Shown: positions 8,348 to 61,181 of the stretch, piece after piece
Layout of the letters: each line of letters opens with the position of its first letter
Numbering within the stretch: position 1 is the first letter of the stretch
NCBI GenBank assembly: GCA_964484505.1
Contig: CAZAFB010000004.1
Span: 23,265 to 87,264 of the forward strand
DNA from: an uncultured Bdellovibrionales bacterium
GTDB taxonomy: Bacteria > Patescibacteriota > Minisyncoccia > Moranbacterales > GWC2-37-73
Length of the DNA stretch: 64,000 bases
Reading direction: 5' to 3'
The notes under the pieces: model-generated
Database searches by the model: none
Told to the model about the DNA's origin: nothing
Seen by the model: only the letters and a program-made list of their open reading frames with translations
Position numbers and translations under genes: made by a program

Positions 8348-8437
8348 GCGACTCTAATACTCGAATTTGCCACCCTAATGACTCTAATATTTGGGTCAGT
8401 AGATTGCTTATTGGTAAATTAGAGTCGCGCAAAAATT

Positions 8438-9613
8438 ATGCAAAAACACAAAGAACATATAGATCACGGAAAAATTCATTTGATCAGCGGTATATCTTTA
8501 GCGCTGGGATTTTCACAGGCGCTGATCCTCTATGTCGTGTCCTCGTTTTATCGAGAGGCTTCCGGCACGGAAAATGTCGGTGTTTTCTATTTCATTTCCA
8601 ATTTGATCGTACTGGTTGGGCTGCTCAACATGCACAAGTTCATCAGAAGAATGGGCAAGGCCACAGTATTTCTGTTTTTCTTTTTTGTGCAGATATGCCT
8701 GGGTGCTTTTTTGGTTATTTCCGGGCCGACATGGTTGGGCGTGCTGATTTTGATGGCGCACTTGATTGCGGTGGATATGGTTTGGGTGTCGCTGGATATT
8801 ATTTTGGAATCATATTCGACTGATCAACAATCTGGCAGAATCAGGGGGTTGCACCTGATGATTATGAACATCGGATTTTTGGCCGGACCTTTTCTTTCCA
8901 CTAGCATTCTTGAGCGCTATGGTTATTCGGAACTTTTTTTCGTCGCCATGCTCATCAACATGCTGATTTTTGTGGTTGCAATGGTGTGGCTTCGCAGAAC
9001 AAGCTATGTTTTTCGGGAACAGCTTACGGTCAAGGATTTGGCGCGCAAGATTTTCGTGAACAAGGAGTTGATGAATATTTATTACGTTTCTTTTCTTCTG
9101 GAATTCTTTTATGCTCTGATGACCATCTACATGCCGCTATATCTTGTCGATCGAGGTTTGGGTTGGGATAAGATCGGTATTATTTTCACAATCATGCTCA
9201 TCCCTTTTGTTTTGGTGGAATATCCGGCTGGGATTTTGGCGGACAAAAAAAGCGGGCATGAAAAAAAGATGATCATCATATCTTTGGTAATTATTGCGCT
9301 TTCGACACTGAGCATCTTTTTTATCAAAGGATCGCACGTTTGGATTTGGGCGGCGGTTTTGTTTGTTACGCGTATCGGCGCGGCGCTTTTGGAAGTATTG
9401 CGCGATTCCTATTTTTACAAGAAAATAGACGGGCGTGATGTCGATATAATCGGTTTTTTCAGGACCGCCAGACCAATATCATATATTATTGCGGCGACTA
9501 TTTCGGCAATGTCCGTGGCTTTATTCGGAGTGAGCGCCGTGTTTGTGGTCATTGCGATTGCGGCTTTGCTGACACTGTTTCCTGCTTTGCGACTAATTGA
9601 TAATAAATGCTGA
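8438..9613 (+). CDS. MFS-type transporter
   Basis: About 12 predicted TM helices, 391 aa. Confidence 0.55.
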   Translation: MQKHKEHIDHGKIHLISGISLALGFSQALILYVVSSFYREASGTENVGVFYFISNLIVLVGLLNMHKFIRRMGKATVFLFFFFVQICLGAFLVISGPTWLGVLILMAHLIAVDMVWVSLDIILESYSTDQQSGRIRGLHLMIMNIGFLAGPFLSTSILERYGYSELFFVAMLINMLIFVVAMVWLRRTSYVFREQLTVKDLARKIFVNKELMNIYYVSFLLEFFYALMTIYMPLYLVDRGLGWDKIGIIFTIMLIPFVLVEYPAGILADKKSGHEKKMIIISLVIIALSTLSIFFIKGSHVWIWAAVLFVTRIGAALLEVLRDSYFYKKIDGRDVDIIGFFRTARPISYIIAATISAMSVALFGVSAVFVVIAIAALLTLFPALRLIDNKC

Positions 9614-10323
9614 TGTATAAGATAAGACTGGAACAATTTGAAGGACCGCTTGATTTGCTTTTACAGTTGATTGAAAACGAGAAATTGGATATCACTCGCG
9701 TTTCCTTGGCGCAGGTAACGGATCAATATTTGGAATATATTGATCAGGCGCATGATGTGTCTTTGGCGCATATGGCCGATTTTTTGACAGTTGCTTCGCG
9801 TTTAATTCTGATCAAATCCAAGGCTCTTTTGCCACTTTTGGAATTCACGGAAGAAGAGGAGCAGGAAATACGCGACCTTGAATATTCCTTGGCGCAGTAT
9901 AAGAAATATAAAGAAGCGGCACTTGTCTTGGGCGAGATGTTTTTGAAAGCGATCGGCTTGGTGACTCGTCCGGAGGCCAAATTGGTAAAACCCGTGTTTT
10001 GTCCGCCGGAAGATATCACAGCGGCTGATTTGGAAGCATCATTTTTGCATGTGATTGATGAAATTCCCCAAGCTGAAAAGCTGGAAGAAGAAGCGATTCG
10101 CGAGGTGATTACTTTGGAAGAAAAAATTACGCACCTGCAAGATACTTTGCGCGAAAAAGTACAGGCGTCGTTTGCGGAATTGGTGGCGCACGCGACTGAC
10201 AAAGTTGAAATAGTAGTTTCTTTTTTGGCGATGCTGGAGTTGGTGAAACAAAAACTTATTCATGTGGAGCAAGGTGAACTTTTTTCCGAAATAAAACTCA
10301 AGCATCATGAAAGCACAAAATAA
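9607..10323 (+). CDS. scpA: segregation and condensation protein A
   Basis: N-terminal FEGPLDLLLQLIENEKLDITRVSLAQVTDQYLEY signature. Confidence 0.8.
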   Translation: MLMYKIRLEQFEGPLDLLLQLIENEKLDITRVSLAQVTDQYLEYIDQAHDVSLAHMADFLTVASRLILIKSKALLPLLEFTEEEEQEIRDLEYSLAQYKKYKEAALVLGEMFLKAIGLVTRPEAKLVKPVFCPPEDITAADLEASFLHVIDEIPQAEKLEEEAIREVITLEEKITHLQDTLREKVQASFAELVAHATDKVEIVVSFLAMLELVKQKLIHVEQGELFSEIKLKHHESTK

Positions 10324-10367
10324 TTGCAGTTAAAAACAAGTATAAATTAGTAATTCATGAATCATAT

Positions 10368-10946
10368 ATGGAGAAGGAAAAGCTAAAATCAATCATCGAA
10401 AGTCTGCTTTTTGCCAGTGGAGATCCGGTTTTAATTGGAAAATTGGCCAAGATTGCGGGCGTAAAAAACGAAGAAGTCGCGGCTGTTTTGGATGCCTTGG
10501 TTGAAAAATATGCCAAACCGGAAAGCGGTCTTGTCTTGCTTCGTCACGGCGAAAAAGCCCAATTGGCTACCAGAGCTGATAATTCCGAATTCATTGAACA
10601 ACTAAGGACGGTAGAACTTTCCGAAACGCTTTCGCCGGCGGCTCTGGAAGTACTTTCCATTGTTGCTTATCGCGGACCGATTTCTAAGTCGGAAATCGAA
10701 GCGATTCGCGGAGTGAATTGCAGTTATACTGTGCGAAACTTGTTACTCAGAGGTCTGATTGAGCGCAATGATAATCCGCATGACGCGCGTGGATATATAT
10801 ATTCAATCACCTTTGATTTTCTCAAAAAATTGGGGGTGGAGAAAGTAGAAAAATTGCCGCAATATGGTATACTTTCCAAGGATGAGAGAATAACGGCCAT
10901 GATGGAGGAGAACTCGGAAATTGCTGATGTTGCTCAGGCAGAATAG
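10368..10946 (+). CDS. scpB: segregation and condensation protein B
   Basis: Tandem winged-helix ScpB architecture (LEVLSIVAYRGPISKSEIEAIRGV). Confidence 0.8.
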   Translation: MEKEKLKSIIESLLFASGDPVLIGKLAKIAGVKNEEVAAVLDALVEKYAKPESGLVLLRHGEKAQLATRADNSEFIEQLRTVELSETLSPAALEVLSIVAYRGPISKSEIEAIRGVNCSYTVRNLLLRGLIERNDNPHDARGYIYSITFDFLKKLGVEKVEKLPQYGILSKDERITAMMEENSEIADVAQAE

Positions 10947-10975
10947 GGCAGTAAAAAAATAAGATTTTTAGTCTA

Positions 10976-12019
10976 ATGCAATTGATTTTATCATCATTAA
11001 TGCTGCTTGTTTTCCCGCTTAATTCATTACTTTTTTTTGACGGAAGTTGGGTGCAGGGTCGGGAAATGAAACTGGAACAAGCGAGCATAGAAAAATTGGC
11101 GGAAAAAGGAAATGAAGCCGTGGCGGGAGTGACTGATCAGAAAAAAGAGCCGCCCAAAAAAGAGGAAGAAATATTCTCTCTTTCGGGGTATGTTCCCTAT
11201 CGCAAAGAAGGAGTTCCTGATCTTGTTTTACCTAATGCACATTCCTCATTAATTATTGATGCGCAATCCGGTACCATATTGCACTATTCTAATGGCAAAG
11301 AAAGAAGGCAAATTGCCTCACTCACAAAAATGATGACGGCTGTTTTGACCATGGAAAACATCAAAGATTTGAATGCGCCGGTTATTATCGGAGAGGAAGA
11401 AGTCTATATTGAAGGCACAAAGATAGGTTGCCCGCGTAGCGGTTATTGCATCAGTCAAAGACTAAAGGTTGGCGAGAAGATATCAGCGGAAAATTTGCTC
11501 AAGGCGATGCTTATGAATAGCGCCAATGATGCGGCATTGGCTTTGGGAAAGCACATGGGCGGAGGTAGTGAAGAAAAATTTGTTGACATGATGAATGAAA
11601 AAGCCAGGAATCTAGGTCTTAGCGATACTCATTTTTGCACTCCTTCCGGTTTGGAAATAGATGGCCGAGAATCGGAATGCTACTCTTCCGCATATGATAT
11701 AGCGCGTATTGCCGCCTATGCTCTGCGCTATGACCATATTTGGAAAATTTTTCGCCTGCCAAGCAATACGGAAGTCACATCTTCGGACGGCACATTGACG
11801 CATACTATTTTAAATACGGATCTCATTTTGGATCAGGTGCCAAACTGTTTGGGAGGAAAAACCGGTTTTACGCCGCTTGCCGGACATTCTTTGCTTATGG
11901 CAGCAACCGATCCGGAAAAGAAACACACTATTGTGGCGGTACTTCTGGATGACCCTTATCGCTGGCAGGATATCAGAACTATGATTGATTGGTCATTTAA
12001 GTCATATGATTGGCGATAA
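10976..12019 (+). CDS. D-alanyl-D-alanine carboxypeptidase (PBP5/DacA-like serine peptidase)
   Basis: SxxK (SLTK), SxN (SAND), KTG motifs; N-terminal hydrophobic segment. Confidence 0.75.
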   Translation: MQLILSSLMLLVFPLNSLLFFDGSWVQGREMKLEQASIEKLAEKGNEAVAGVTDQKKEPPKKEEEIFSLSGYVPYRKEGVPDLVLPNAHSSLIIDAQSGTILHYSNGKERRQIASLTKMMTAVLTMENIKDLNAPVIIGEEEVYIEGTKIGCPRSGYCISQRLKVGEKISAENLLKAMLMNSANDAALALGKHMGGGSEEKFVDMMNEKARNLGLSDTHFCTPSGLEIDGRESECYSSAYDIARIAAYALRYDHIWKIFRLPSNTEVTSSDGTLTHTILNTDLILDQVPNCLGGKTGFTPLAGHSLLMAATDPEKKHTIVAVLLDDPYRWQDIRTMIDWSFKSYDWR

Positions 12020-12115
12020 AATAGCGAATAATCACGAATAAAAAAGCTCGCAAATTGACACGAATTAATTAGTGAATATCAGTGATAAATTAGTGTTGAT
12101 TAGCGATTTAATTAA
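12020..12115 (+). repeat. intergenic phased-repeat element (CGAAT-type array plus TTAG(N)GAT-type array)
   Basis: Same two-module element as in the ribosomal cluster, ending at the mraY ATG. Confidence 0.6.
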
Positions 12116-13216
12116 ATGCAATTTGCTCAAATCCAAACAATCCCAGAAGTAGTTAATGTGCTAAAGGTGCTGGTCACCGGTGTGTTGGCTTTTGGCTTGG
12201 CTTTTGCGCTGACGCCGATCTGGACGCATTTTCTCTACAAATATAAAATAGGCATCAAGATAAAATCTTGTGATGTTACCGGAAAAAAACTTTCCTTCGT
12301 CAGCAAACTGCACTCGCATAAAGCCGGTACTCCTACCATGGGAGGTGTTATTGTCTGGGCGAGTGTGCTTATTTTGGTATATGGTATCCACTATGTTTTT
12401 CCTTATTTGGCGTCGCTTTTTGATATTAATTTTTTGGCGCGCTTGGATTTTCTCAAACGCTCACAGGTTTGGTTGCCGCTTTTTGTGTTGGTGACCGCAG
12501 GCATCCTTGGACTTTTCGATGATGTGATGAGCGTTCGTGGTTGGGGCAAAAACAAAGGTGGTGGGATGCGTTTCGCTATGCGTTTTTGGTGGCTTTTTGC
12601 TATAGCCGCCGCCGGTTCTTGGTGGTTTTACTATAAACTGGGATGGGATATGTTCCATATTCCGGGAATCGGAGATTTCTCGATCGGACTTTGGTATATT
12701 CCTCTTTTCATCTTCATCATTCTTTTTGCGGCTGTTTCCTCCAACGAGACAGATGGTTTGGATGGTTTGGATGGCGGAGTGTTGATGATGGCTTTTTTCT
12801 CTTTTGCGATAATTTCTTTTTTGCAAAACAAAGTGGATCTGGCTTCTTTTTGCGCAGCAGTTTCCGGCGCCTTGTTGGCGTTTCTTTGGTTTAATGTTTA
12901 TCCGGCACGCTTTTTTATGGGAGATACTGGAGCAATCTCTTTGGGAACTACTTTGGGAGTGGTTGCTATGTTAACCAATTCCGCACTGGCACTTTTTGTT
13001 ATCGTGGCCGTCTATGTTTTGGAGTCGGGAAGTGTTATAATACAATTGACCAGCAAAAAATTTTTTGGTAAGAAAGTTTTTCTTGCCGCCCCGCTGCACC
13101 ATCATTTTGAAGCGAAAGGTTGGCCGGAACCGAAAGTGGTTATGCGGGCATGGATTATCACGATGATGACATGTCTTTTGGGTGTAATTATCGGGATAAT
13201 AGGAATGGGGAAGTAG
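12116..13216 (+). CDS. mraY: phospho-N-acetylmuramoyl-pentapeptide transferase
   Basis: NETDGLDGLDGG, MGDTGA, HHHFE motifs; polytopic membrane protein. Confidence 0.85.
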   Translation: MQFAQIQTIPEVVNVLKVLVTGVLAFGLAFALTPIWTHFLYKYKIGIKIKSCDVTGKKLSFVSKLHSHKAGTPTMGGVIVWASVLILVYGIHYVFPYLASLFDINFLARLDFLKRSQVWLPLFVLVTAGILGLFDDVMSVRGWGKNKGGGMRFAMRFWWLFAIAAAGSWWFYYKLGWDMFHIPGIGDFSIGLWYIPLFIFIILFAAVSSNETDGLDGLDGGVLMMAFFSFAIISFLQNKVDLASFCAAVSGALLAFLWFNVYPARFFMGDTGAISLGTTLGVVAMLTNSALALFVIVAVYVLESGSVIIQLTSKKFFGKKVFLAAPLHHHFEAKGWPEPKVVMRAWIITMMTCLLGVIIGIIGMGK

Positions 13217-13338
13217 TCTACGAATTACGAACATATACGAAAGTACAAAAAGATTCAAAAGATGTTGCTCGGACACAAATTAGTACATTTGTAAAATTCG
13301 TAGTTCGAAGAGATTAATAAATCAAAAATCAAAAAGCT

Positions 13339-14373
13339 ATGAGGAGGATTCAGGATGTCGATGTAAAAGACAAGAGAGTTTTAGTGAGAACGGATTTTAA
13401 TGTCGAGGTCGATAATGGCATAGTCAAAGAAAAATTTAAGATAGCTGCTGCTAAGGAAACTATCGATAAGCTGATAGCGGATGGTGCGGCAAGGGTTGCA
13501 ATGATGTCGCATTTGGGGCGTCCGGAAGGAAAGCGCGATGAAAAATATTCTTTGGCGCAAATAGCTGATGATGTTGCTGATATTCTTGGCAGGAAGGTTG
13601 TTTTTTGCAGTGAATGTATCGGTGCGGCAGTAGAGAAATCTTTTGAAGGAATCGAGGAAGGCGCAGTGGTTCTTTTGGAGAACACGAGGTTTTATCCCGG
13701 AGAGGAAAGTAATGATGCCGAATTTGCAAAACAATTGGCTGCAGGTTTTGATATTTTTGTTAATGAAGCATTCAGTGTTTGTCATCGTGATCAGGCTTCA
13801 GTAACGGGAATAACCAAATTCTTGTCAAGTTATGGCGGTCTTTGGTTGCAAAAAGAAATTGAAAACCTTAATCGTGTCTTGCATGAACCTGAACATCCAG
13901 CCACGGCAATCATAGGTGGTGCCAAAATTGAGACAAAACTGCCTCTAATTAAGAGATTTGAGCAGAATTATGACCATGTTTTAGTAGGAGGTAAGGTGGC
14001 TAACGAAGCTATTGATCAGAAAATAGAATTTTCGCACAAAGTTATGTTGCCGGTAGATTTCGGCGGTGACCGTTTCGATATTGGACCGAAGACGATCAAA
14101 ATGTATAAGGAGATTGTTTCCGCTTCCAAATTGGTTGTGTGGAATGGTCCGATGGGTAGATTTGAAGAACCTCCTTATGATCAGGGTACGCGGCAAATTC
14201 TGGATATAATTTCCGATGGTGACATGTTTACGCTTACCGGTGGCGGGGAGTCGATTCAGATTTTGGAAGAGCGTGGTTTGATGGGTGCGATATCCTTTGT
14301 TTCAACTGGAGGCGGAGCAATGCTTGAATATCTCAGTGGCAACAAGATGCCTGGAATAGAAAGCTTGAAATAA
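13339..14373 (+). CDS. pgk: phosphoglycerate kinase (short form)
   Basis: RTDFNV, SHLGRP, LENTRF, STGGGA motifs. Confidence 0.85.
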   Translation: MRRIQDVDVKDKRVLVRTDFNVEVDNGIVKEKFKIAAAKETIDKLIADGAARVAMMSHLGRPEGKRDEKYSLAQIADDVADILGRKVVFCSECIGAAVEKSFEGIEEGAVVLLENTRFYPGEESNDAEFAKQLAAGFDIFVNEAFSVCHRDQASVTGITKFLSSYGGLWLQKEIENLNRVLHEPEHPATAIIGGAKIETKLPLIKRFEQNYDHVLVGGKVANEAIDQKIEFSHKVMLPVDFGGDRFDIGPKTIKMYKEIVSASKLVVWNGPMGRFEEPPYDQGTRQILDIISDGDMFTLTGGGESIQILEERGLMGAISFVSTGGGAMLEYLSGNKMPGIESLK

Positions 14374-14394
14374 AAAATTGTAAAAACAAAAAGC

Positions 14395-14973
14395 ATGAAA
14401 TCCGGACAGGCGATTTTAAACAGACATGGAAAAACGGAGCAGACGGGTTCGGTTAATTATTTTGCCAGGGCTGGTCTTTATGTTTCTCAAGCCATTTTGA
14501 TTCTTGGATCCCTGCTTGTTTTCTTTGATTATTTCGGGATGTTTTCCCAAGAAGCGCTTCTTTGGTCCTATAGGATCATTGATATATGGATAATATGCGT
14601 GGGGCTTTTGATTGTTTTTGGCTGTGTTCCCTATTTGTATTTTTCCAGCTTGGTTAAATTCAAGAAGAATGACATGTTTTGGGATGTGGAAACTTTTTGG
14701 ATCTTTATTCTTTTCATGGCCGGCATGTTTTTCCAATATGGAAGTGGCAGGGAATATGCCCTACACTTGGTTGTTTTTTCCACTGCTTCCATCATGGTGT
14801 TGCACATATATTTCATGATTATCTCTTCAAATATTCACAGCGGATCCTTGGACCGTCGGCGTGCACATGTTTATTTTGAAAGCTTGAAATATTTGATCGC
14901 TTATTATGCCATAACATTGACATTGCTGACCCTGTTTAATCCTTTTGATTCGGTATATGCCATGTTTTCATGA
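14395..14973 (+). CDS. hypothetical membrane protein
   Basis: Several hydrophobic helices. Confidence 0.4.
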   Translation: MKSGQAILNRHGKTEQTGSVNYFARAGLYVSQAILILGSLLVFFDYFGMFSQEALLWSYRIIDIWIICVGLLIVFGCVPYLYFSSLVKFKKNDMFWDVETFWIFILFMAGMFFQYGSGREYALHLVVFSTASIMVLHIYFMIISSNIHSGSLDRRRAHVYFESLKYLIAYYAITLTLLTLFNPFDSVYAMFS

Positions 14974-15013
14974 GATAAAATGATTTACTTCTAATTTTTA
15001 AACAAAAATCAAA

Positions 15014-16324
15014 ATGTCAACTATAAAGAAAATTTCAGCCAGAGAAATATTGGATTCAAGAGGAAATCCCACAGTGGAAGTTGCGGTTACTCTTTCCAGC
15101 GGAGCAACAGCAAGTGCGGCAGTGCCATCTGGTGCATCCACGGGAACATATGAAGCTCTGGAATTGCGAGATGGAGACAAAAATCGTTACGGCGGCTTGG
15201 GTGTGAAGAAGGCGGTCGAACATGTTAATACGGAAATTGCCGAGGCTCTTTTCGGTCATGACGTTGATGATCAGTTCGGCATTGACAGACTTCTTTGCTC
15301 GCTTGATGGAACGGAAAATAAGTCCAGGCTCGGAGCCAATGCTATTTTGGGCGTATCGCTTGCGGTTTGTCGAGTTGCGGCAATCGAGAAAGGAGAAGCC
15401 CTGTACAAACGCATAAATTGTTTGATGGGAAAACTGGAAAAAAAAAGCGTGACCAAAATGCGCTTGCCGATTCCTATGTTTAATGTGCTCAATGGAGGAC
15501 AACACAGTGATAGTGGTCTCAGTATTCAGGAGTTCAAAGTCGTGCCAACCGGTTTTTCCGATATTGAGGATCAAGTAAGAGCTGGAAGCGAGATTTTCCA
15601 TGCGCTTAAGAAATTATTAGCAGCTGATGGACATAGTGTGGGAGTTGGTGACGAGGGAGGATTTGCGCCAAAATTGGAAAGCAATACTCAGGCGCTGGAA
15701 TATATCAAGAAAGCGATCGAAACTGCAGGTTACGAGTTTGGCAAGCAAATTCACATTGGTATTGATGCGGCAGCAAGCTCATTCTTTGATGAGCAAGAAA
15801 ACAAATATATACTCAAGCCGGAGAATGTCATGTTGGAAAAAGAGAGGTTGATCGCTTTTTATCGCGAATGGATGGATAAATTTGCGGTGATATCCATAGA
15901 AGATGGTCTTGAAGAAAATGATTGGGATGGTTGGGCCATGATGTTGGAAAAAGTTCGTAGGTACAATATCGACGGCGTGAAATCATCAATCATGAAAGAA
16001 GCGATGGTTATAGGTGATGACTTGTTGGTGACGAATGTAAAACGTCTGCAAGAGGCGATTAAACATAAATCATGTAACAGTGTCTTGATCAAAGTTAATC
16101 AAATCGGAACGCTGACAGAGACTCTGGAATGTATTTTGCTTGCCCGTAAAAACAAGATGAAGTCTGTTATTTCGCATCGCAGCGGAGAGACGACGGATGA
16201 TTTCATTTCCGACCTTGCTGTAGGAGCGGGAGCTGAATTTATGAAATCAGGATCGCTTTCCCGCGGTGAGAGACTTTGTAAATATAACAGATTGATGGAG
16301 ATAGCGGGGGAAATGAATTGCTGA
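15014..16324 (+). CDS. eno: enolase
   Basis: ILDSRGNPTVEV and SHRSGETTD motifs. Confidence 0.9.
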   Translation: MSTIKKISAREILDSRGNPTVEVAVTLSSGATASAAVPSGASTGTYEALELRDGDKNRYGGLGVKKAVEHVNTEIAEALFGHDVDDQFGIDRLLCSLDGTENKSRLGANAILGVSLAVCRVAAIEKGEALYKRINCLMGKLEKKSVTKMRLPIPMFNVLNGGQHSDSGLSIQEFKVVPTGFSDIEDQVRAGSEIFHALKKLLAADGHSVGVGDEGGFAPKLESNTQALEYIKKAIETAGYEFGKQIHIGIDAAASSFFDEQENKYILKPENVMLEKERLIAFYREWMDKFAVISIEDGLEENDWDGWAMMLEKVRRYNIDGVKSSIMKEAMVIGDDLLVTNVKRLQEAIKHKSCNSVLIKVNQIGTLTETLECILLARKNKMKSVISHRSGETTDDFISDLAVGAGAEFMKSGSLSRGERLCKYNRLMEIAGEMNC

Positions 16325-16341
16325 ATATTGAGTGTTGAATT

Positions 16342-17370
16342 TTGAATATAGAATTTTTTATGGCCCACGTATTAGTTATCGGATCGGCATGTAAGGACAT
16401 CTTTTTCCCAACAAATGAAGGAGATATTTTTGATACGCCTCAAGACGCTACTTCTCAGCGCAAAATCGCTTTTGAGCTTGGAGCTAAATATCATATTGAA
16501 AGGAGATTTGAAACTCTGGGAGGATGTGCGGTGAATGTGGGAGTCGGTTTGGTTAAGCTCGGGCATGATGTTTGTTGTCATGCTCCCATAGGGCATGATG
16601 CTACTGGGGAATGGATCGTCAAAAATATGGCGGATTTGGGCGTTGATGTTTCTCGTGTGGTGCATGAAAGCAAGGAACAAAGTGATCTTTCAGCTATAGT
16701 TGTTGATAAGAAAAGCGGGGAGCGCACCATTTTTTCAAGTCATGGAGCTAGCAGGACGTTCAGTTTTGACGCTGGAGCAACTCATGGCGCCGATTGGCTT
16801 TTTATTGGTGATTTGAGTGGCAAATGGAAGGAAAATCTTGAAGAAATTGGGAATTGTGCCAAACGCGATGATATTAAGATAGCATTCAATCCCAGGCAAC
16901 AAATGATTCATGAAGATGCTCGCTTCGTGAAAGATATGTTGGGAATCAGTGATGTGGGGATATTAAACAAAGATGAAGCTTTGGAAATTGCCATGCGTTG
17001 CGGCAGGGCAAATGTGGATTTTGAAATTGAAGACGAAATTAGCATCTTGCGTTTTTTGCAAGAGGAGGGAGCGGAGATTTTGGTGATTACGGATGGTGTC
17101 CGTGGTGCTTGGGCCTCGGACGGAATTTCTTTTTTGCATGCGGAGGCTCTTTGTCATGATGAAGTCATTGATACTACTGGGGCTGGGGATGCTTTTGCCA
17201 GTGGTTTTTTAGGAGCGATAATCGCGGGCTTGGATATTTCAAAAGCTTTATCCTGGGGAATAGTCAACAGTAGTGAATCTTTGCGGTATTATGGTGGCCA
17301 GGAAGGCTTGCTCAATAGTGCGGAAATTGTCGAAAAAAGTTCCAAAGTTAGAATAAAAAAACTAAAATAA
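16342..17370 (+). CDS. PfkB-family carbohydrate/nucleoside kinase
   Basis: DTTGAGDAF signature. True start may be the downstream ATG (MAHVLVIG). Confidence 0.7.
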   Translation: MNIEFFMAHVLVIGSACKDIFFPTNEGDIFDTPQDATSQRKIAFELGAKYHIERRFETLGGCAVNVGVGLVKLGHDVCCHAPIGHDATGEWIVKNMADLGVDVSRVVHESKEQSDLSAIVVDKKSGERTIFSSHGASRTFSFDAGATHGADWLFIGDLSGKWKENLEEIGNCAKRDDIKIAFNPRQQMIHEDARFVKDMLGISDVGILNKDEALEIAMRCGRANVDFEIEDEISILRFLQEEGAEILVITDGVRGAWASDGISFLHAEALCHDEVIDTTGAGDAFASGFLGAIIAGLDISKALSWGIVNSSESLRYYGGQEGLLNSAEIVEKSSKVRIKKLK

Positions 17371-17386
17371 CAAAAAATAAATTATC

Positions 17387-18649
17387 ATGGGTTTGTTCTC
17401 GAAAATATTCAAGGGCGGAAAAGGGGAAGTTTTCTTAGCTCTGGACATAGGTACCGAAGTTGCCAAGGCTTTGATATTTTCCGTTGGCTCGGAAGATCGC
17501 AGCGCTACAATTTTGGGCGTTGCAAAGGAAAGACAAAAGAGGGGTAATATGCAAAGTGGCGCCGTTTCAGACATCGGAGGAGTAATTGAAACTTGTCAGA
17601 GAGCAATCGCTTCGTCGCAGGAGGCTGCCGGTGTGAAAAAAGTTAAAAAAGCCATTGTGGGTATCGCTGGAGAATTGGTTAAGGGGACAACGACCACGGT
17701 GCATTATCAGAGGACTAATCCCGAGTCTAGAATAGATTTTTCCGAATTGAAAGTGATTATAAAAAAAGTCCAGGAAAAAGCTTTTGAAAGAATCAAAGAC
17801 CAAATTTCTTGGGATACGGGACAAAGTGATATTGATATAAAGCTGATCAATGCGGCTATTGTTGATGTGCGCATAGATGGTTACCAGGTGAATAACCCGA
17901 TAGGTTTTCAGGGCAAGGACGTTTCAGTGAGCGTTTTCAATGCCTATGCCCCCATGATTCACTTGGGCGCCTTGGAAGCAATTGCCGACGAATTGCACAT
18001 AGATTTGGTCAGCATAGCTGCTGAGCCATATGCGGTAGCCAGGGCGATTGATTATGAAGATATTTTGGATTTTAGCGCCATTTTCATTGATATTGGTGGT
18101 GGAACTACCGATATAGCAGTAGTGCGTAACGGGGGGCTTGAAGGAACGAGGATGTTTGCTTTTGGTGGCAGGGCTTTTACTAAAAAATTGGCACAGGAAT
18201 TGCGTATCGGTTTTGATGAAGCGGAGGACTTGAAATTGCAATATGCCTATGGAAAATTAAGTCCGGATATCAACGATAAGATCGAACAGATACTGCAAAG
18301 CGATTGTGACGTTTGGCTAAGTGGGGTGGAATTGTCCCTGTCCGAATTTGCTCAAGCCGATGTCCTTCCTTCCAAGATATTGCTTTGCGGAGGTGGTAGT
18401 GGTTTACCTGGAATTCGCAAGGCACTTCTTTCCCCTCAGTGGTTGAAGGACCTGCCTTTTGCAAAGGTTCCCACAGTCGGCTATTTGCAACCTAAAGATG
18501 TGACCAGAGTTGTGGACACTACCGGTCAGTTGAAAAATCCTCAAGATGTGACGCCAATGGGGCTTGCCAATCTTGTTCTGGACATTTCTTCCGAGGAAAA
18601 AGTAATGGCAGGAATATTACGTCGTGTGGTACAATCAATGCAGGACTAA
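17387..18649 (+). CDS. ftsA: actin-like ATPase, cell division protein FtsA family
   Basis: DIGTE...KALI, IDIGGGTTDIAV, GGGSGLPG motifs; C-terminal amphipathic tail. No ftsZ adjacent. Confidence 0.6.
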   Translation: MGLFSKIFKGGKGEVFLALDIGTEVAKALIFSVGSEDRSATILGVAKERQKRGNMQSGAVSDIGGVIETCQRAIASSQEAAGVKKVKKAIVGIAGELVKGTTTTVHYQRTNPESRIDFSELKVIIKKVQEKAFERIKDQISWDTGQSDIDIKLINAAIVDVRIDGYQVNNPIGFQGKDVSVSVFNAYAPMIHLGALEAIADELHIDLVSIAAEPYAVARAIDYEDILDFSAIFIDIGGGTTDIAVVRNGGLEGTRMFAFGGRAFTKKLAQELRIGFDEAEDLKLQYAYGKLSPDINDKIEQILQSDCDVWLSGVELSLSEFAQADVLPSKILLCGGGSGLPGIRKALLSPQWLKDLPFAKVPTVGYLQPKDVTRVVDTTGQLKNPQDVTPMGLANLVLDISSEEKVMAGILRRVVQSMQD

Positions 18650-18754
18650 TGGTATAACTCGCGAATCAACGCGAATTATATCTCGAATAATCACGAATGA
18701 ATTCATTAGGGATAATTAGTGATAAATTAGTGTTGATTAGAGATCTATATAATT
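18650..18754 (+). repeat. intergenic phased-repeat element (CGAAT x4 then TTAGNGAT x4)
   Basis: Same two-module element as in the ribosomal cluster, ending at the downstream ATG. Confidence 0.6.
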
Positions 18755-20641
18755 ATGCATCAGACATTCTACATAAGTGGTGATGAAGAAATATCCTCGA
18801 TAGTAGATAGATTGCGTAAATCCGTGTCGCAGGAGAATTATTTTGTCGTGCCTCCGCGAGCACTTGTTTTTCAAAGTGTGGTTAATTTAAAGCTGTTAGC
18901 CAAAGAAGCCGAGAAAATTGGAAGGAAGGCAATCTTGGTCACACAGGATGAAATGGGCGCATCATTGGCTCAACGTGCCGGTTTGAATGTGCGTTCTTCC
19001 ATGGAGGGTATTGGTAATAACCAGCCGAAGATCAAAGATTTTTCTACCAAGGAAGAAATATCCTCCAAAAAGATGGAATTTGGTGGTGATACGCTTGCCA
19101 GCGGAAATGAAATCGGCGAAGTGCTGGAAAAAAAGCAACGATTATCCAGCATTGGTTCAGCTGATTTTTATGGAGAGCAAAAGGCTACTAGTCAAAATGT
19201 TAAGATTGAGACAACTGCGGCGCCAGCTTCTTTGCAAGGAAAACGCGATGTGATTTATGTTGGCAAGCAGGGCTTGGCTGGCGATATAAAAAGCAACAGA
19301 CAAACTGTGCCAACTTCTTCTATTGTCCCAAAAGTTGTCGCCAGCAATGAAAGTGCAAGGAGGCCTTATCCTGGTACAGAACAGCGTATCGAAAAAATGT
19401 TTCTAAACAAAGAACATCCCAAAGTGGAAAAGCCAAAAATTTCCCATAGCGAGAGTGTTCCGGTGGGCGGGAGGACCAAGATGTTTATCGGAATATTTCT
19501 TTTATTGGGATTGTTTGTTCTTGGCGCCGTGGCTATATTTGTTATTTTGCCTAGCGCTAAAATAAAAGTTGTCGTCAATGATGAAAGACAAAAGGCGGAT
19601 ATAGCGATAGCTGGAAGTGAACAAATTGTTTCCGCTGATGAATCAACAAAAAACATTCCGGTAAAATTTATAGAAAAAGATGAAGTCGTAACTCTTTCCT
19701 ATGAAGCGACGGGAATTGCCTCTGGCTCGGGATCCAAAGCAAAGGGTGCGGTAATCATAAATAATGAATACAGCGATCAGCCGCAAACATTGATAGCAAC
19801 GACTCGCCTGAAAAACAGTGAGGGAAAAATATATCGTATAACCAAAGACGTAACTGTTCCGGGCATGCGTTCCGTTGGCTCCGACAAGGAGCCTGGTAAG
19901 GTGGAAGTGGAGGTAGTGGCGGATGACTTTGGAGAAGAATTTGATATGAGTGAAGGTAAATTTACTATTCCCGGTTTTGAAGGCGGCCCTAAATATGAAA
20001 AATTCTCTGCAGAGGTAAAAGAAAAGATTTCGGGTGGTAATATGAGCGACAATCCAATTAAAGCGGTTTCAGAGCAGGATATCATTAAGGCCAAAAAGGA
20101 AACGGAGACTGCTCTGAAAAATAAAGTAAAAGATATCATAAACGCAGACCTGGAGGAAGGATATGCTGTCATGGATGAAACCATGGATTCAATCATTGTT
20201 CAATCCAGTGCTTCGGTGAAGGCCGGTGCGGAAAAAGACAGTTTTGATTATGCAGTCAAAGCTCACATAAAGGCCTTGGCCTTTTCTGCAGAAGATGCGA
20301 AAAAGATATTGGTCTCAAGCTTTGAAAAAACAACAATTGAAAAGGCAAGTGCTAACGAAATGAAAATTGAATATACGGGCATTTCACCTGATTTCACAGG
20401 AAAAAAACTAAGCTTGCGTGCTCATGGAGAAATAGTAAAACCTTCCGATTTTGATGCGGAGACATTCAAAAAAGATATTTTAGGTAAAAATGAACAAGAA
20501 ATAGGGAAGGTTGTGGATAAATTTGAAAATATCGACAATGTAGAAATGGAATTCAATTTCAAGTTTGTTTCCAGAGTTCCAAATTATCCGCAAAGAGTGT
20601 CGGTGGAAGTTATTCATCAGGAAAAAAGCTTGGCAAAGTAG
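18755..20641 (+). CDS. hypothetical single-pass membrane protein (about 240 aa cytoplasmic N-domain, one TM, about 370 aa extracytoplasmic domain)
   Basis: 628-aa ORF with one strongly hydrophobic segment; no recognisable family. Confidence 0.5.
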   Translation: MHQTFYISGDEEISSIVDRLRKSVSQENYFVVPPRALVFQSVVNLKLLAKEAEKIGRKAILVTQDEMGASLAQRAGLNVRSSMEGIGNNQPKIKDFSTKEEISSKKMEFGGDTLASGNEIGEVLEKKQRLSSIGSADFYGEQKATSQNVKIETTAAPASLQGKRDVIYVGKQGLAGDIKSNRQTVPTSSIVPKVVASNESARRPYPGTEQRIEKMFLNKEHPKVEKPKISHSESVPVGGRTKMFIGIFLLLGLFVLGAVAIFVILPSAKIKVVVNDERQKADIAIAGSEQIVSADESTKNIPVKFIEKDEVVTLSYEATGIASGSGSKAKGAVIINNEYSDQPQTLIATTRLKNSEGKIYRITKDVTVPGMRSVGSDKEPGKVEVEVVADDFGEEFDMSEGKFTIPGFEGGPKYEKFSAEVKEKISGGNMSDNPIKAVSEQDIIKAKKETETALKNKVKDIINADLEEGYAVMDETMDSIIVQSSASVKAGAEKDSFDYAVKAHIKALAFSAEDAKKILVSSFEKTTIEKASANEMKIEYTGISPDFTGKKLSLRAHGEIVKPSDFDAETFKKDILGKNEQEIGKVVDKFENIDNVEMEFNFKFVSRVPNYPQRVSVEVIHQEKSLAK

Positions 20642-20853: not shown

Positions 20854-20892
20854 TACGGAAATCGTAAACTTGTCAAGTTGTTATATGAGTTC

Positions 20893-20945
20893 ATAACGTT
20901 TATAACGTTCGTAACGTTATAACGTTAAAAACGTTTAAGCGTTAA
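20893..20945 (+). repeat. 9-bp tandem repeat (xTAACGTTx) x6 immediately upstream of nrdR
   Basis: AACGTT hexamers at 20895, 20904, 20913, 20921, 20930, and AGCGTT at 20938. Confidence 0.8.
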
Positions 20946-20959
20946 AACGAAAAAATACT

Positions 20960-21412: not shown

Positions 21413-21523
21413 TGGCGACTCGAATGATACGAATCTGCACTCGAATGACTCGAATGTCAAAGTAATCTATTCGCAAATGGGCATTTATTCGTAGGTTAGA
21501 ATTATATTATTTATTAAATACTT

Positions 21524-23806: not shown

Positions 23807-24004
23807 CATTTGTCATGCTGAATTTATTTCAGCATCCCTAGGAGTACAGCGCAGATCCTGAAACAAGTTCAGGATGACAGCAATAAAACGTTTCTATCGA
23901 TAAGCTAGCGATCAATAGAAATAATTAGATATAAAATAAAAAGATAAATACAAAGGTTGCGAATTTTTTCGTACATTCGTAAAAATTCGTAATTCGTAGG
24001 GAAT

Positions 24005-24271
24005 ATGGAAAAATACATCTGCCATGATTGTGGCAAAACATTGGAAAACAATGAAGAATATATGCCCTATCAAGTAGGGGAAGAAATATATGTGAAATGT
24101 AAAGCATGTCACCAAGCCGATCCGGTGCTGCGCAATTTCCGCGCCACGGAAGTTTATTCTCGCGTGGTTGGCTATATCCGCCCGGTTAAACAATGGAACA
24201 AGGGAAAAAGGACTGAATTTGGAGATAGGAAAGAGTTTGTGGTTGAGAATGCTGGGTGTTGTGCAGCGTAG
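24005..24271 (+). CDS. free-standing NrdD C-terminal module: Zn ribbon plus glycyl-radical domain (GrcA-like spare part candidate)
   Basis: CHDCG...CKACH Zn ribbon, then EVYSRVVGYIRPVKQWNKGKRTEFGDRKEFVV, near-identical to the NrdD C-terminus at protein level but diverged at synonymous sites. Confidence 0.7.
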   Translation: MEKYICHDCGKTLENNEEYMPYQVGEEIYVKCKACHQADPVLRNFRATEVYSRVVGYIRPVKQWNKGKRTEFGDRKEFVVENAGCCAA

Positions 24272-24292
24272 ATTGGGTAGGAGACAGGAATT

Positions 24293-24320
24293 ATAGATTA
24301 TAGATTATAGATTATAGATT
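24293..24320 (+). repeat. 7-bp tandem repeat TATAGAT x4
   Basis: Direct reading of the sequence. Confidence 0.9.
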
Positions 24321-24493
24321 ATTGCGTGGTATTGGTAAAACCCAGCCTTCGCTCGCTTTGGGGCGAGCTACGGCGGGCGAGGAAAAAGATGGCGGGGCGA
24401 TATTTTCTCAGGGGAATATCGCCCTGTGTTTCCTTCGAGAGAAAATTGGGATTTGTTTAGAAATTAGATATTAGGAATTAGAAATTTACGCGT

Positions 24494-33751: not shown

Positions 33752-33865
33752 CCCTGAAGTAAATTTTTCGGGCTGTAGTATACCGGTAGTACGCGTCCAT
33801 GGGGTGGATGTAGACCGGGTTCAATTCCCGGCAGCCCGACAATTATCCGAAAAATTACTTCAGGG
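33752..33865 (+). repeat. 19/20-bp inverted repeat (CCCTGAAGTAAATTTTTCGG / CCGAAAAATTACTTCAGGG) bracketing tRNA-Pro
   Basis: Near-perfect reverse complements at 33752-33771 and 33847-33865. Confidence 0.85.
33769..33839 (+). tRNA. tRNA-Pro (anticodon GGG)
   Basis: Acceptor CGGGCTG/CAGCCCG (C1-G72 typical of bacterial tRNA-Pro, A73), D arm, anticodon stem CGTCC/GGATG, loop ATGGGGT (U33, G37), T arm CCGGG-TTCAATT-CCCGG; CCA not encoded. Confidence 0.8.
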
Positions 33866-34024
33866 TAGAGGTGTTTGCTTGCCCCGCACTAAGCTTGCTT
33901 TGGTGCTGAGGTAGCGGCGGTTCGATTCCGCCTGTCCCGACCACGTAAAATTGTTACGCAATCACGTGGCATAGCCAGAAAAATTGCTGTGCAATAGCGC
34001 ATAGCCTTGGAATTGTTACGTAGC

Positions 34025-41783: not shown

Positions 41784-41882
41784 TATAAATCCCGAATCGA
41801 CACGAATTGTATCGCGAATAATCGCTAATACATTCGGGAATATTCGTGAAATAATTAGAGTAAATTAGCGATTCATAACATT
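41784..41882 (+). repeat. intergenic phased-repeat element
   Basis: CGAAT-type and TTAGNG-type repeats ending at the rpsG ATG. Confidence 0.6.
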
Positions 41883-42350: not shown

Positions 42351-42590
42351 TTTCTACGAAGTACGAACATTTACGAATGTACGAAAACAGAGAATAGCAA
42401 TTTAAAAGGCTGAATTTGAAGTTTCAATTCAATTATAAATGTCTAAATTTTAAAACATTTAGCATTTAGTAAATTAAAATTCATTTCAAATTTAAAATTT
42501 TAAACTTAAAATTATTCTAGCTGTTGTATCTTGGTTATTTGCAAAATATTTTTTAGTTTCAATCAATAAGAAAATATATTAAACAAACTT

Positions 42591-44669
42591 ATGGCATCTG
42601 ATATTTCCAAACTACGCAATATCGGTATTATCGCCCATATCGATGGAGGGAAGACTACTACGACGGAACGCATTTTGTTCTACACCGGAATCACTCACAA
42701 GATTGGTGAAGTGCATGAAGGTGAGGCGACCATGGACTGGATGGAACAGGAACGCGAGCGCGGTATTACCATCACTTCCGCTGCAACCAAATGTGAGTGG
42801 AAAGGTCATCCGATCAACATCATTGACACCCCGGGACACGTGGACTTCACTGTGGAAGTGGAGCGCTCTTTGCGTGTGCTTGATGGTGCGGTGGTTATTT
42901 TCGACGGCAAAGAAGGTGTGGAGCCGCAGTCTGAAACCGTGTGGCGCCAAGCTGATAAATACAATGTGCCTCGTATCTGCTTTGTAAACAAAATCGACAA
43001 GGAAGGTGCGGATTTCAACTTCGTGCTCGGTTCTATTTGGAATCGTTTAACTCCAAACGCTTTGGCGTTGCAAATGCCAATCGGTGAGCGCGGTGATTTT
43101 TCCGGTGTGGTCGATTTGATCAAAATGAAAGCCTACAAATTTGAAGGCGCGATGGGTGAAAATGTTATTGAATATGAAATCCCTGCTGAGCTTTTGGATC
43201 AAGCAAAAGAATGGCGTGAAAAAATGGTGGAAAGAATTTCCGAAACGGATGACGCGCTGACAGAAAAATTTTTGAATGGCGAAGAAATTTCCGAAGCGGA
43301 ACTCAAAACCGCGCTTCGCAATGCTGTGATTGCAGTTAAGCTGGTTCCTGTATTCACTGGAACAGCTCTTCGCAACAAGGGTGTGCAGTTGGTACTTGAT
43401 GCGGTTGTTGATTATTTGCCAAGCCCGATTGACATTCCGGCTGTTAAAGGAACAAATCCGAAAAACAACGAAGAGGTGGAAAGAAAAGCTGATGACACCG
43501 AACCATTTTCCGCACTTGCTTTCAAAGTGGCAACCGATCCTTTTGTGGGTCAACTTACATTCTTTCGCGTATATTCAGGAACGCTGAAAGCTGGTTCATA
43601 TGTAATGAATTCAACCAAAGGTGAAAAGGAACGCATCGGACGTATTTTGCAGATGCATGCCAATCATCGTGAAGAAATCGATGAAATCACTGCTGGTGGA
43701 ATCGGCGCGTTGGTAGGAATGAAAAATACCACGACTGGTGATACGCTTTGTGATGAACAAAAACAAGTGGTTTTGGAAAACATCGTGTTTCCGGAACCTG
43801 TTATTGATATCGCGGTGGAACCAAAGACGAAAGCTGATCAGGAAAAGATGGGCATGGCTCTTCGCAAATTGGCTCAAGAAGATCCGACACTCAGGCTGCG
43901 CACTGATGAAGAGAGCGGTCAGACAATCATTTCCGGAATGGGCGAGCTTCATTTGGATATCATTATCGACCGCATGAAACGTGAGTTCAAGGTTGAAGCA
44001 AACATTGGTCAGCCGCAAGTGGCATATCGTGAAACGATCAAGACTGCTGCGCAAGCCGAAGGAAAATATGTTCGTCAATCCGGAGGACGCGGACAATATG
44101 GTCATTGCTGGCTCAAAGTTGAACCTCAGGAAGAAGCTGGCAAGGGATTTGAATTCGTTGATGAAATCAAAGGTGGTGTTATTCCGCAAGAATATATTCC
44201 TGCTGTGCAAAAGGGTGCCAAGGAAGCTTTGGAAAACGGTGTCATTGCCGGTTATCCGATGGTTGACGTGAAAGTAACACTTTATGATGGTTCCTTCCAT
44301 GAAGTGGACTCTTCGGAAGCTGCTTTCAAAATTGCCGGATCTTTGGCGATCCAGGAAGCAACCAAACGCGCCAATCCTGTTTTGCTTGAACCGATGATGA
44401 GCGTGCAGGTGATCACCCCGGAACAATTCATGGGTGATGTGGTGGGTGATGTAAATTCCCGTCGCGGTATGATCAAGGAAATCAATGATCGCGGAGAAGG
44501 CAATGCGCGCGTGAAAGAAATCAACGCGGAAGTGCCGTTGGCTTCGATGTTCGGCTATGCGACGCAGCTTCGCTCCATGACGCAAGGACGCGCCAGCTAT
44601 TCCATGGAATTCGGACACTACAGCGAAGTGCCGAAGTCGATTGCGGAGACGATCGCTTCTAAAAAATAG
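42591..44669 (+). CDS. fusA: elongation factor G
   Basis: [23 protein letters not shown], full EF-G domain series. Confidence 0.95.
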
Positions 44670-44740
44670 AACTCGCGAATTTGCACGAATAAAATTCAAC
44701 GAATAATCGCGAATAGGATTCATTCGATACTATAGGGAAG

Positions 44741-44765
44741 GCGGCCTCGAGAGAGGCCGCTTTTT
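44741..44765 (+). terminator. rho-independent terminator (GCGGCCTC-gaga-GAGGCCGC plus T5)
   Basis: Perfect 8-bp stem; twin of the hairpin at 45584. Confidence 0.8.
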
Positions 44766-45555: not shown

Positions 45556-45583
45556 CTTCAAATTGGAATATAAGTGAGTTACG

Positions 45584-45609
45584 GCAGCCTCGAGAGAGGC
45601 TGCTTTTTT
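45584..45609 (+). terminator. rho-independent terminator (GCAGCCTC-gaga-GAGGCTGC plus T6)
   Basis: Differs from the 44741 hairpin by one compensatory base-pair change. Confidence 0.8.
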
Positions 45610-52094: not shown

Positions 52095-52211
52095 AAAACA
52101 TACCTCAAATCGACGGCCGTGAGTTCGTGTATAGTTTTGGTTATGATGTGATGGTTTGGACCTTGTGATGAACATAAAGGGAAAATTAATAATATGGATG
52201 AGGCGCAGGCA

Positions 52212-57105: not shown

Positions 57106-57283
57106 TAATATTAATCACGGATCGACGCGAATTAAGTCCCGAATATTCTCGAATGGCATGTATGGGTTTATTAGAGATTGTTAGAGATAAATTTGTGTAG
57201 ATTAGAGATTTATATCACTGGTTAAAGTCCTGTCGCTTGCGAGTAACGGGATACTCAACTAGCCAAACGCGAAATTTTTCGCG

Positions 57284-57934: not shown

Positions 57935-57937
57935 AAA

Positions 57938-60430: not shown

Positions 60431-60508
60431 GGATTTAAATCGCGAATCGAATGCAAGAATTAGAGATTATTAGGGATAAATTAGCGTAAATTAGAGATTT
60501 ATACCATT
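60431..60508 (+). repeat. intergenic phased-repeat element (shortened module A)
   Basis: AATCGCGAATCGAATGC then TTAGAGAT-type array. Confidence 0.8.
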
Positions 60509-61084: not shown

Positions 61085-61181
61085 ATAATTCACGAATCGA
61101 CACGAATTTGTTCTCGAATAATCACGAATTTATTAGAGATAATTAGCGATAAATTAGTGTAAATTAGCGATTTATAAAATT
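61085..61181 (+). repeat. intergenic phased-repeat element
   Basis: CACGAATCGACACGAAT...CTCGAATAATCACGAAT then TTAGAGAT/TTAGCGAT/TTAGTGTA/TTAGCGAT. Confidence 0.8.

Follow-up and report, generated by a model that had tools for sequence, protein, structure and literature searches.

Few bacterial gene arrays are as compact and as conserved as the ribosomal-protein operons. In the DNA studied here they are broken at almost every gene boundary by an ordered 100-bp repeat, and the question raised by this locus is what kind of element this repeat is. The stretch analysed (the window) comprises 64,000 nucleotides from an uncultured bacterium placed by GTDB in the Patescibacteriota, order Moranbacterales (assembly GCA_964484505.1, contig CAZAFB010000004.1, positions 23,265 to 87,264 of the forward strand); coordinates given below count from its first nucleotide. 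The same repeat also stands before cell-envelope genes and, in relatives, within an essential GTPase gene. It is best read as a propagating family of repeats with many copies in Moranbacteria and occurrences in a few other candidate phyla, its broad kind being that of the REP/REPIN, ERIC and Correia sequences and of the Rickettsia palindromic elements (RPE).

Architecture of the element

The element, termed class I, is an imperfect palindrome of 90-110 bp with four 8-nt units per arm, TC.C[G/T]AAT in the left and ATT[A/C]G.GA in the right. The initial annotation of this DNA had described "CGAAT then TTAGNGAT" modules; because four TC.C[G/T]AAT units reverse-complement four ATT[A/C]G.GA units, these are not two signals but the two arms of a single palindrome. 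Reverse-complementing TCGCGAAT gives ATTCGCGA, and this deviates from the right-arm unit ATTAGAGA in two places, one a fixed position (C versus A) and the other the free N. Invariant positions are C2, C4 and AAT in the one type of unit and ATT, G5 and G7 in the other, the N positions being free. A left arm with the T variant (CTCTAAT) is common in relatives; the CTCTAAT found at 8348, formerly taken for a copy in reverse orientation, is a normal left arm of this variant.

Four units per arm are present in all well-preserved copies. Of about 33 copies taken from many genomes, nearly all have a spacing of 10/11/10 in the ATTAG-type arm and of 10/12/10 in the ATTCG-type arm, and both the 4+4 layout and the arm-specific difference of 11 versus 12 recur in a locus labelled Omnitrophota (L063; L-numbers denote the loci of relatives used for comparison). 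The third unit from the centre is flanked by A...T and the remaining units by T...A, while the caps at the element ends read TAAATC...GATTTA. The centre, or loop, varies in length from -2 to 23 nt (0-23 nt except for one overlapping copy). The right arm contains stop codons in all three frames.

Copies in the window

Four TTAGNG units at 10/11/10 spacing, with up to three mismatches allowed, were matched 10 times in the whole window where shuffles gave an expectation of 0.02; the corresponding CGAAT pattern (four units, 10/12/10) likewise gave 10 matches against 0.02 expected. An nhmmer profile seeded with seven window copies, namely six from the ribosomal cluster and the copy before the gene for a 628-aa (amino acid) protein, recovered 11 copies with E values from 1e-29 to 1e-13, plus a left arm alone after fusA. 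In total the window holds 12 class I copies, all between co-directional genes. In 11 of the 12 copies the last unit ends 10-15 nt before an ATG and the first unit follows the upstream stop codon by 4-13 nt, so that placement relative to genes is non-random. The view of the initial annotation that the element is dispersed and not specific to ribosomal-protein genes is borne out by copies before mraY, the 628-aa gene and an MFS transporter gene, and all the sequences that it named are present where it had placed them.

All copies described here are on the + strand. The one leading to the MFS start (8348..8437) follows the stop of a class II (D/K/N-type) tRNA synthetase gene and went undetected by the nhmmer profile (E>10). 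It has an intact left arm of four C.C[GT]AAT units in the CTAAT variant (8352-8388), for which chance predicts 0.015 clusters of at least three units per window, and a decayed right arm in which only ATTAGAG at 8418, 13 nt before the ATG, is intact. Because the four-unit arm is beyond chance and this ATTAGAG unit is intact, we regard the spacer as a real, partly decayed and normally oriented copy. Its RNA is predicted to fold at -33.3 kcal/mol (z=-5.0), with a helix that begins 1 nt behind the stop and ends 9 nt short of the ATG. The mraY copy (12020..12115; nhmmer 12019-12110, E=1.3e-13) begins after the stop of a D-Ala-D-Ala carboxypeptidase gene, and its left arm is irregularly spaced (10/16/10). 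Between the ftsA stop and the start of the 628-aa gene lies a full 4+4 copy (18650..18754; nhmmer 18652-18757, E=4.6e-28). The score of this copy is partly circular because it was among the seven seed sequences; independently of the profile, it matches both four-unit patterns with 0 mismatches.

The rpsL-rpsG copy (41784..41882, E=5.3e-19) has mixed A/C units and is located downstream of a canonical promoter at ~41193. After the fusA stop there is a truncated copy (44667..44733) consisting of the left arm and one right-arm unit (E=5.5e-8, profile positions 4-68), followed by an intrinsic terminator (44740-44765). In the S10 region a copy after the S10 stop (57111..57218, E=1.7e-22) is succeeded by a conserved structured RNA instead of an ATG; further copies separate L3 from L4 (57935..58040, E=1.4e-29), L23 from L2 (59051..59158, E=2e-27), L22 from S3 (61085..61181, E=4e-26), L16 from L29 (62340..62446, E=3.6e-29; fold z=-6.4) and S17 from L14 (62868..62979, E=2.4e-29). 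The S19-L22 copy (60431..60508, E=5.7e-15, profile positions 41-109) retains only 1-2 units of its left arm, and at S3-L16 (61822..61922, E=3.7e-23) the S3 stop codon TAA is contained in the outermost CTCTAAT unit. A second family, class II (TACGAA / TTCGTA), forms foldbacks similar to those of class I after mraY, after rpsG, before L3 and between L14 and L24.

Occurrence in relatives and evidence for spreading

A pattern scan of species-representative genomes revealed true copies in metagenome-assembled genomes (MAGs) of Moranbacteria and other Patescibacteria, one of them before mraY in GW2011_GWC2_37_8. MAGs carrying the labels Elusimicrobia (copy upstream of a radical-SAM gene), Omnitrophota (rplL-rpoB) and others showed the same architecture, and a metagenome scan added copies before the genes for L24, S8, S14, L23 and EF-Ts (tsf) and before dnaK. 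Many unrelated TTAGGG-type tandem arrays from the genome scan (Verrucomicrobia bin.89, RUG14632, Lutispora, Saprospiraceae) were set aside because the search pattern itself selects for them. Viral contigs contained only unrelated tandem repeats.

Four properties of the family resemble those of a mobile element: homogeneity within a genome, presence/absence polymorphism, occurrence in both orientations and in-frame copies in coding sequence. The window copies are 85-94% identical to one another and closer to each other than to the copies at the same junctions in other genomes. Where the window has full elements at S3-L16 and L22-S3, L072 has merely 'TGATATG' and 'TAATATTTATG', respectively. The element is absent from the S10-L3 junction in L018 and L072. 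At mraY, class I is missing in L090 and L091, which have other repeat families there; at the ftsA/628-aa junction it is found only in the window, L090 retaining just the tail GAGATCTATA.AATT-ATG and L092 having an AAAGTT/AACTTT foldback. The mraY/pgk junction, with class II in the window, is occupied by a different family in L020. Copies in flipped orientation between co-directional genes occur in L015 and, before dnaK, in L076; in these the ATTCG arm adjoins the ATG and the tail is the same.

The lepA gene (EF4) carries an in-frame class I-type copy in L068 (reverse complement of 8620-8720) and L081 (reverse complement of 10440-10540), which is free of stops and adds ~25-28 residues. L081 has a second in-frame CGAAT/ATTCG insert near lepA codon 65 that is missing from L068, where a 7-nt periodic CCTAnnn run is found instead. 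Decayed or truncated copies are represented by those in the MFS spacer, at S19-L22 and at the fusA 3' end. Finally, the S10 operon has the order L23-S19-L22-L2-S3 in L017 and L018/L078 versus the near-universal L23-L2-S19-L22-S3, with class I elements at the breakpoints.

In relatives, other families fill equivalent junctions of the mraY-ftsA region and of the S10, spc and alpha operons. Their layout is the same: after the stop codon come about four units, then a loop, about four units in inverse orientation, and an AU-rich tail leading to the ATG. The units include ATAACTA/AAGTTAT (7 nt), AAGTC/GACTTGAAA, TGTTC/GAACA, TTAGCTT/AAGCTAA and AATGCAAAA/TTTTGCATT, with periods of 7-11 nt, and the foldbacks have stability z values from -2 to -7.3. 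Since different families share one layout, a single sequence-specific regulator is insufficient as an explanation. A structure-compatible class of repeats which repeatedly colonises or replaces gaps can explain the variety of families.

Constraint on retained copies

Where a copy is shared between genomes, it is conserved beyond its surroundings. The mraY copies of the window and L020 (one is also present in L075) are 75.5% identical, as compared with 42.8% at mraY third codon positions and 48% in the next spacer. For the MFS spacer, identity of the window with L090 is 76% versus 42% at MFS third codon positions, and third positions of the lepA insert are 64% identical versus 40% elsewhere in the gene, although this insert comprises 28 codons only. 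Retained copies evolve far more slowly than synonymous sites. The constraint is not universal: L090 and L091 are nearer to the window (MraY 90% and 86% identical) than is L020 (78%), yet have other families before mraY.

RNA folding and promoter searches

The predicted RNA helices extend from the stop codon to just before the start codon. For class I as a whole the z values average -3.3, those in the window ranging from -0.7 to -6.4. In 18 of 27 spacers the fold of the sense strand is slightly more stable than that of the antisense strand (p=0.025). In the arm alignment 78.8% of cells pair, owing to the invariance of the motif. Pairs at the fixed position were counted as G.A (47), U.C (22), U-A (21) and G-C (3), and N3-N6 formed Watson-Crick pairs in 32% of cases, not above controls. 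Together with the covariation test given below, these unit-pair counts led to the rejection of an RNA helix under selection in class I. An Rfam search of the whole window at the gathering threshold returned tRNA as the sole match, and with E<=5 nothing relevant appeared in 56700-64000.

Most genes of the window lack a Shine-Dalgarno sequence and have A/T-rich, often TATAAT-like stretches upstream of their starts. Canonical TTGACA-N17-TATAAT promoters and intrinsic terminators are present elsewhere in the window. Within 56700-63600, 14 sigma-70-type promoter matches were found versus 15.2 expected, none of them in the right arm or tail of an element.

Nature of the element

The reading that we favour, at a confidence just short of an even chance, is that of a propagating foldback repeat of the REP/Correia/RPE kind, which is transcribed in operons and was tolerated, then constrained, because stop and start fold together. 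The invariant bases, the fixed spacing and the occurrence in either orientation suggest that the units are recognised by their sequence, double-stranded DNA being the simplest substrate; the position and folding of the element suggest that it exists as part of operon transcripts. We infer that the copies would spread or be homogenised at the DNA level by a factor reading the units, be it a transposase- or recombinase-type protein or gene conversion. The element would then be transcribed within operon mRNAs, where its arms would fold back imperfectly and place the upstream stop and the downstream start at the base of one stem, and the AU-rich tail (GAUUUAUA..AUU-AUG) would provide the Shine-Dalgarno-less start context that is typical of this genome. 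Insertions would keep downstream translation working, and for this reason they may have been tolerated in compact operons and have later come under purifying selection. The initial annotation had named a mobile miniature inverted-repeat transposable element (MITE) flanked by target-site duplications as the finding that would speak against a regulatory signal. The mobile-like behaviour is clear; neither a target-site duplication nor a transposase could be shown.

Several observations weigh against a propagating repeat of this kind. Comparisons of filled with empty sites (S10-L3 in the window versus L072 and L018; L14-L24 in L078 versus L017) yielded TA, ATCAC and GATTTA as candidate target-site duplications, which are ambiguous because they also fit the palindrome or unit consensus. 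Among the window ORFs (open reading frames) there is no transposase, RAYT, integrase or tyrosine recombinase gene, and in the 766 kb of examined loci no ORF flanked by arms was found that could represent an autonomous parent. Many window copies fold weakly (z from -0.7 to -2.7). Covariation in class I scored 0.027 versus a shuffle mean of 0.044, with 498 of 500 shuffles scoring at least as high, and in 60-95% of copies two positions of each unit remain unpaired; the class I RNA stem may therefore be incidental. Random insertion would not predict the strong enrichment at translation genes (8 of 17 versus 3 of 49 other genes, Fisher p=4e-4), and the invariant alternate bases with their near-helical-repeat spacing would also fit a host DNA-binding regulator.

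The last two points lead to host operator arrays, in which each arm would present four sites on one face of the DNA to an oligomeric DNA-binding protein that co-regulates translation genes, mraY, dnaK and others gene by gene. What is conserved agrees with this: invariant bases with a free N and no compensatory changes, a 10/11-12/10 spacing of ~10.5 bp per unit (direct repeats in step with the helical turn) that is kept across lineages and phylum labels, purifying selection on orthologous copies, the enrichment just mentioned, and function in either orientation as expected for recognition on double-stranded DNA. Nevertheless, we consider it possible but rather unlikely. The elements lie inside operons, 4-13 nt after stops, without an associated sigma-70-like promoter; the absence of an excess of such matches also detracts from the expression-signal role that the initial annotation had envisaged, as do the other repeat families occupying the same junctions in relatives closer than the one sharing the mraY copy. 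Unrelated units of 7-9 nt period at equivalent junctions would require many regulators in genomes of ~1 Mb, and the same sister families, sharing the architecture, weaken helical phase (the DNA face) as the sole cause. Moreover, the element is missing in close relatives at mraY and the 628-aa gene, copies lie in frame within lepA, a centre of -2 to 23 bp leaves no fixed rotational relation between the arms, and a candidate regulator was not found in the window. A gyrase or DNA-wrapping site was dismissed in view of the same variable centre. Resemblances to WhiA GACAC, MraZ GTG repeats, CovR ATTARA, HrcA CIRCE and NrdR boxes were partial or not conserved across copies. A quite unlikely, more far-reaching reading would have a putative dedicated oligomeric nucleic-acid-binding protein, conserved across several candidate phyla, read the unit arrays; Moranbacteria would have split the otherwise universally compact S10, spc and alpha operons into modules prone to recombination and under separate control, with the eight-site element in front of every one, forming a ribosomal-gene regulon whose per-gene operators were spread by a mobile-element-like mechanism.

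If the element acted at the RNA level only, without mobility, it might punctuate operons as an RNase III-type processing site, an exonuclease barrier or a device coupling termination to re-initiation in a largely Shine-Dalgarno-less genome. This accords with the position of all copies between co-directional genes, with helices running from stop to just before start, with the high stability of several copies and of other families (z of -5.0 in the copy before the MFS gene, of -6.4 in that before L29 and of -7.3 in class II of L072), with the preference for the sense strand and with the lack of a Shine-Dalgarno sequence at most window genes; different families at one junction would suggest that structure matters and sequence does not. 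We nonetheless hold such a role by itself to be improbable, given that class I shows no covariation and keeps G.A or U.C mismatches in most of its units, and that many window copies do not fold better than shuffles. A hairpin requires neither a constant 4+4 layout and spacing nor bases that stay invariant across phyla; flipping alters the RNA sequence and the type of mismatch; and many junctions in relatives have no spacer at all. Pairing of UUAGNG as a Shine-Dalgarno/anti-Shine-Dalgarno interaction was dropped as its N position is free. Per-gene promoters of leaderless or short-leader mRNAs, with the TTAGNG array in place of a -35 box and the TTTATA/TAnnAT tail as -10, appear very improbable. 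The TATA-like tail is conserved, a TAnnAT hexamer adjoins the ATG, and TATAAT lies 7-8 nt before the ATG in a few relatives (copies in L018 and L053), but in most copies TAnnAT ends 1 nt before the ATG and transcription would start inside the ORF. Sigma-70-type matches are not in excess, canonical promoters exist elsewhere in the window, AU-rich TATAAT-like contexts also precede ATGs at element-free junctions, and in L019, L063 and L067 a Shine-Dalgarno sequence follows the array. Site-specific recombination sites of the integron attC or pdif type, which would turn genes into shuffleable cassettes, we also regard as highly unlikely: imperfect palindromes with conserved mismatches and a variable centre do separate successive co-directional ORFs, the copies of one genome are homogeneous and elements are found at the breakpoints of the rearranged S10 operon in L017 and L018, but the ends do not match the attC R''/R' consensus (RYYYAAC/GTTRRRY), arms have four units versus two in attC, the window encodes no integrase or tyrosine recombinase, and homologous recombination between repeats explains the rearrangement equally well. 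DNA uptake sequences were also rejected, single units outside arrays not being over-represented relative to a rough composition estimate.

If the element is a domesticated selfish repeat, it shows that tiny, Shine-Dalgarno-poor genomes of the candidate phyla radiation (CPR) tolerate, and then depend on, insertions in critical operons, and it may serve as a marker for recombination and gene-order change such as the L2/S19-L22 swap. A binding array, in contrast, would imply that ribosome synthesis in an uncultured phylum is under a hitherto undescribed global regulator.

Comparison with known repeat systems

The element shares features with several known systems. As in MITEs, there are terminal inverted repeats (the arms being reverse-complementary at the invariant positions), insertion polymorphism, both orientations and near-identical copies; a parent element or transposase with matching ends was not found among the window ORFs and in the 766 kb of loci. 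With the REP/BIME/REPIN sequences of enterobacteria and pseudomonads the element shares the nature of short, multi-copy, imperfect palindromes in transcribed gaps between co-directional genes near stop codons (12 copies in 64 kb), genome-specific families, long persistence at orthologous sites and mRNA hairpins, which in the present case are predicted. Unlike REP, with its single sequence of 20-35 nt, each arm is made of four tandem 8-nt units at 10-12 nt spacing. The ends have no GTAG-type motif, no RAYT (Y1 HUH) gene is seen in the window, the right end is fixed 10-15 nt before the next start, and the elements are heavily concentrated in ribosomal-protein operons.

Mycobacterial interspersed repetitive units (MIRU) lie within operons, extend exactly from stop to start and are compatible with translational coupling; they are direct tandem repeats with small overlapping ORFs. 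The present element is like MIRU in its stop-to-start position and unlike MIRU in its inverted arms and in a right arm with stops in three frames. Eukaryotic FB foldback transposons have long inverted termini composed of short tandem sub-repeats around a variable centre, but are much larger and have a known association with a transposase. The likeness to FB consists in the sub-repeat inverted arms and the variable centre and implies no homology.

The element also resembles the Correia/NEMIS sequences of Neisseria and ERIC (reviewed in PMC10969869) in its size class (~100-200 bp), inverted ends, either orientation, strain polymorphism and probable co-transcription with neighbouring genes. In these known families the A/T-rich, TATA-like termini resemble -10 boxes, as does the tail described here, and transcribed hairpins are RNase-cleavable; transcribed Correia inverted repeats are cut by RNase III, and ERIC affects mRNA decay (PMC10969869). 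Differences are that no TA target duplication is demonstrable, that the promoter signal is not above chance, and that the inverted ends are phased sub-repeat arrays whose arms differ by a systematic A/C exchange and by 11 versus 12 spacing. RPE insertions are in frame (PMC10969869). The element is like RPE in being a palindromic repeat of a reduced genome found in frame inside a conserved protein-coding gene (lepA in L068 and L081, one insert being lineage-specific); unlike RPE, most copies are intercistronic, the sequence family is presumably a separate one, the host phylum is different and the arms are built of sub-repeats. No description of the element was found in the literature searched on repeats of CPR, Patescibacteria or Moranbacteria and on RPE features. 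Being absent from Rfam and from the literature searched, the element and its sister families are currently ignored in Patescibacteria genome annotation.

Related repeats and neighbouring features

The window has a G+C content of 41.8%, and nearly all real genes are on the + strand. A Pfam check agrees with the earlier gene calls for the class II tRNA synthetase, MFS transporter, D-Ala-D-Ala carboxypeptidase, MraY and PGK, and likewise for FtsA, NrdR, NrdD and the str and S10 ribosomal clusters. The 628-aa protein is conserved in Moranbacteria; the source labels of its homologues read Candidatus Moranbacteria.

Besides class I, the arrays that the initial annotation had described downstream of fusA (44676-44714), upstream of nrdD (21421-21455) and between mraY and pgk (13217-13245) were confirmed. 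The last is part of a class II foldback (13217..13310; TACGAA x3 ... TTCGTA/TTCGAA) that spans the gap from the mraY stop to the pgk start on the + strand and folds at -24.1 kcal/mol (z=-3.6). Between the nrdR stop and nrdD (21413..21495, + strand) a CGAAT x4 arm is followed by two inverted ATTCG units, and the spacer folds no better than shuffles (z=+1.2). A hybrid foldback at L14-L24 (63346..63471, + strand; -30.5 kcal/mol, z=-2.6) combines a left arm of four CGAAT units at 10/11/10 spacing with a right arm of four class II TTCGTA units, the latter 92% identical to 23968-24003. Single class II arms on the + strand occur directly after the rpsG stop (42354..42387, TACGAA x4) and before L3 (57315..57357, TACGAA(T) x4-5), where the arm ends 13 nt before the ATG.

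The conserved structured RNA mentioned above, which follows the S10 class I copy and precedes L3 (57217-57310), has the arrangement CTGGTTAAAGTC-hairpin-GGATACTCAACTAGCCA-hairpin, CTGGC..GCCAG and TTTTTT. Its sequence also directly follows the S10 stop in L018 (1785-1895) and in L072 and has no Rfam match; it looks like a ribosomal-protein attenuator or leader between S10 and L3. The S19-L22 spacers of L053 and L072 (205-279 nt) share a conserved sequence rich in TTCCGGAAT-type inverted repeats at the site of the truncated class I copy of the window. In the 240-nt rpsG-fusA spacer long A/T arrays of the AAATTT/GAATTT type are seen (42390-42560), and a similar array is present at S3-L16 in L018.

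A class II right arm precedes an 88-aa ORF after nrdD (24005-24271), which repeats the C-terminal glycyl-radical region of NrdD at 80% DNA identity (23630-23727 versus 24146-24243). An 88-aa NRDD-domain gene is found at the same place in L090. By analogy with GrcA and PflB, this ORF may be a spare glycyl-radical domain for NrdD. The spacer behind it contains 4-5 tandem ATTATAG repeats (24290-24322). Directly before the nrdR start, AACGTT units recur every ~8-11 nt (20890-20950), with two more at 700-720 before the tRNA-synthetase gene (747), and the nrdR leader has NrdR-box-like sequences (ACACTATATCTTGTGG) after a canonical promoter at ~20790.

The terminator behind the truncated fusA copy (44740-44765) has a near-identical counterpart at 45583-45608 (92%); the two flank a 262-aa ORF (44767-45555) with a TTG start and no Pfam match. 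The genes at 52276-55179 are flanked by a duplicated promoter-like block, TTGACT-N17-TAAATT (52208-52268 / 53720-53780), and a duplicated terminator block (53572-53654 / 55200-55282), the duplicates being 89-93% identical. Several of these genes (starts 52276, 52900 and 53818) have a strong GGAGG Shine-Dalgarno sequence, unlike most window genes. Finally, ARAGORN called a 96-nt tRNA-Ala(UGC) at 33848-33943 beside a tRNA-Pro, of which Rfam gives the tRNA-Pro only; an intron or a false call is possible.

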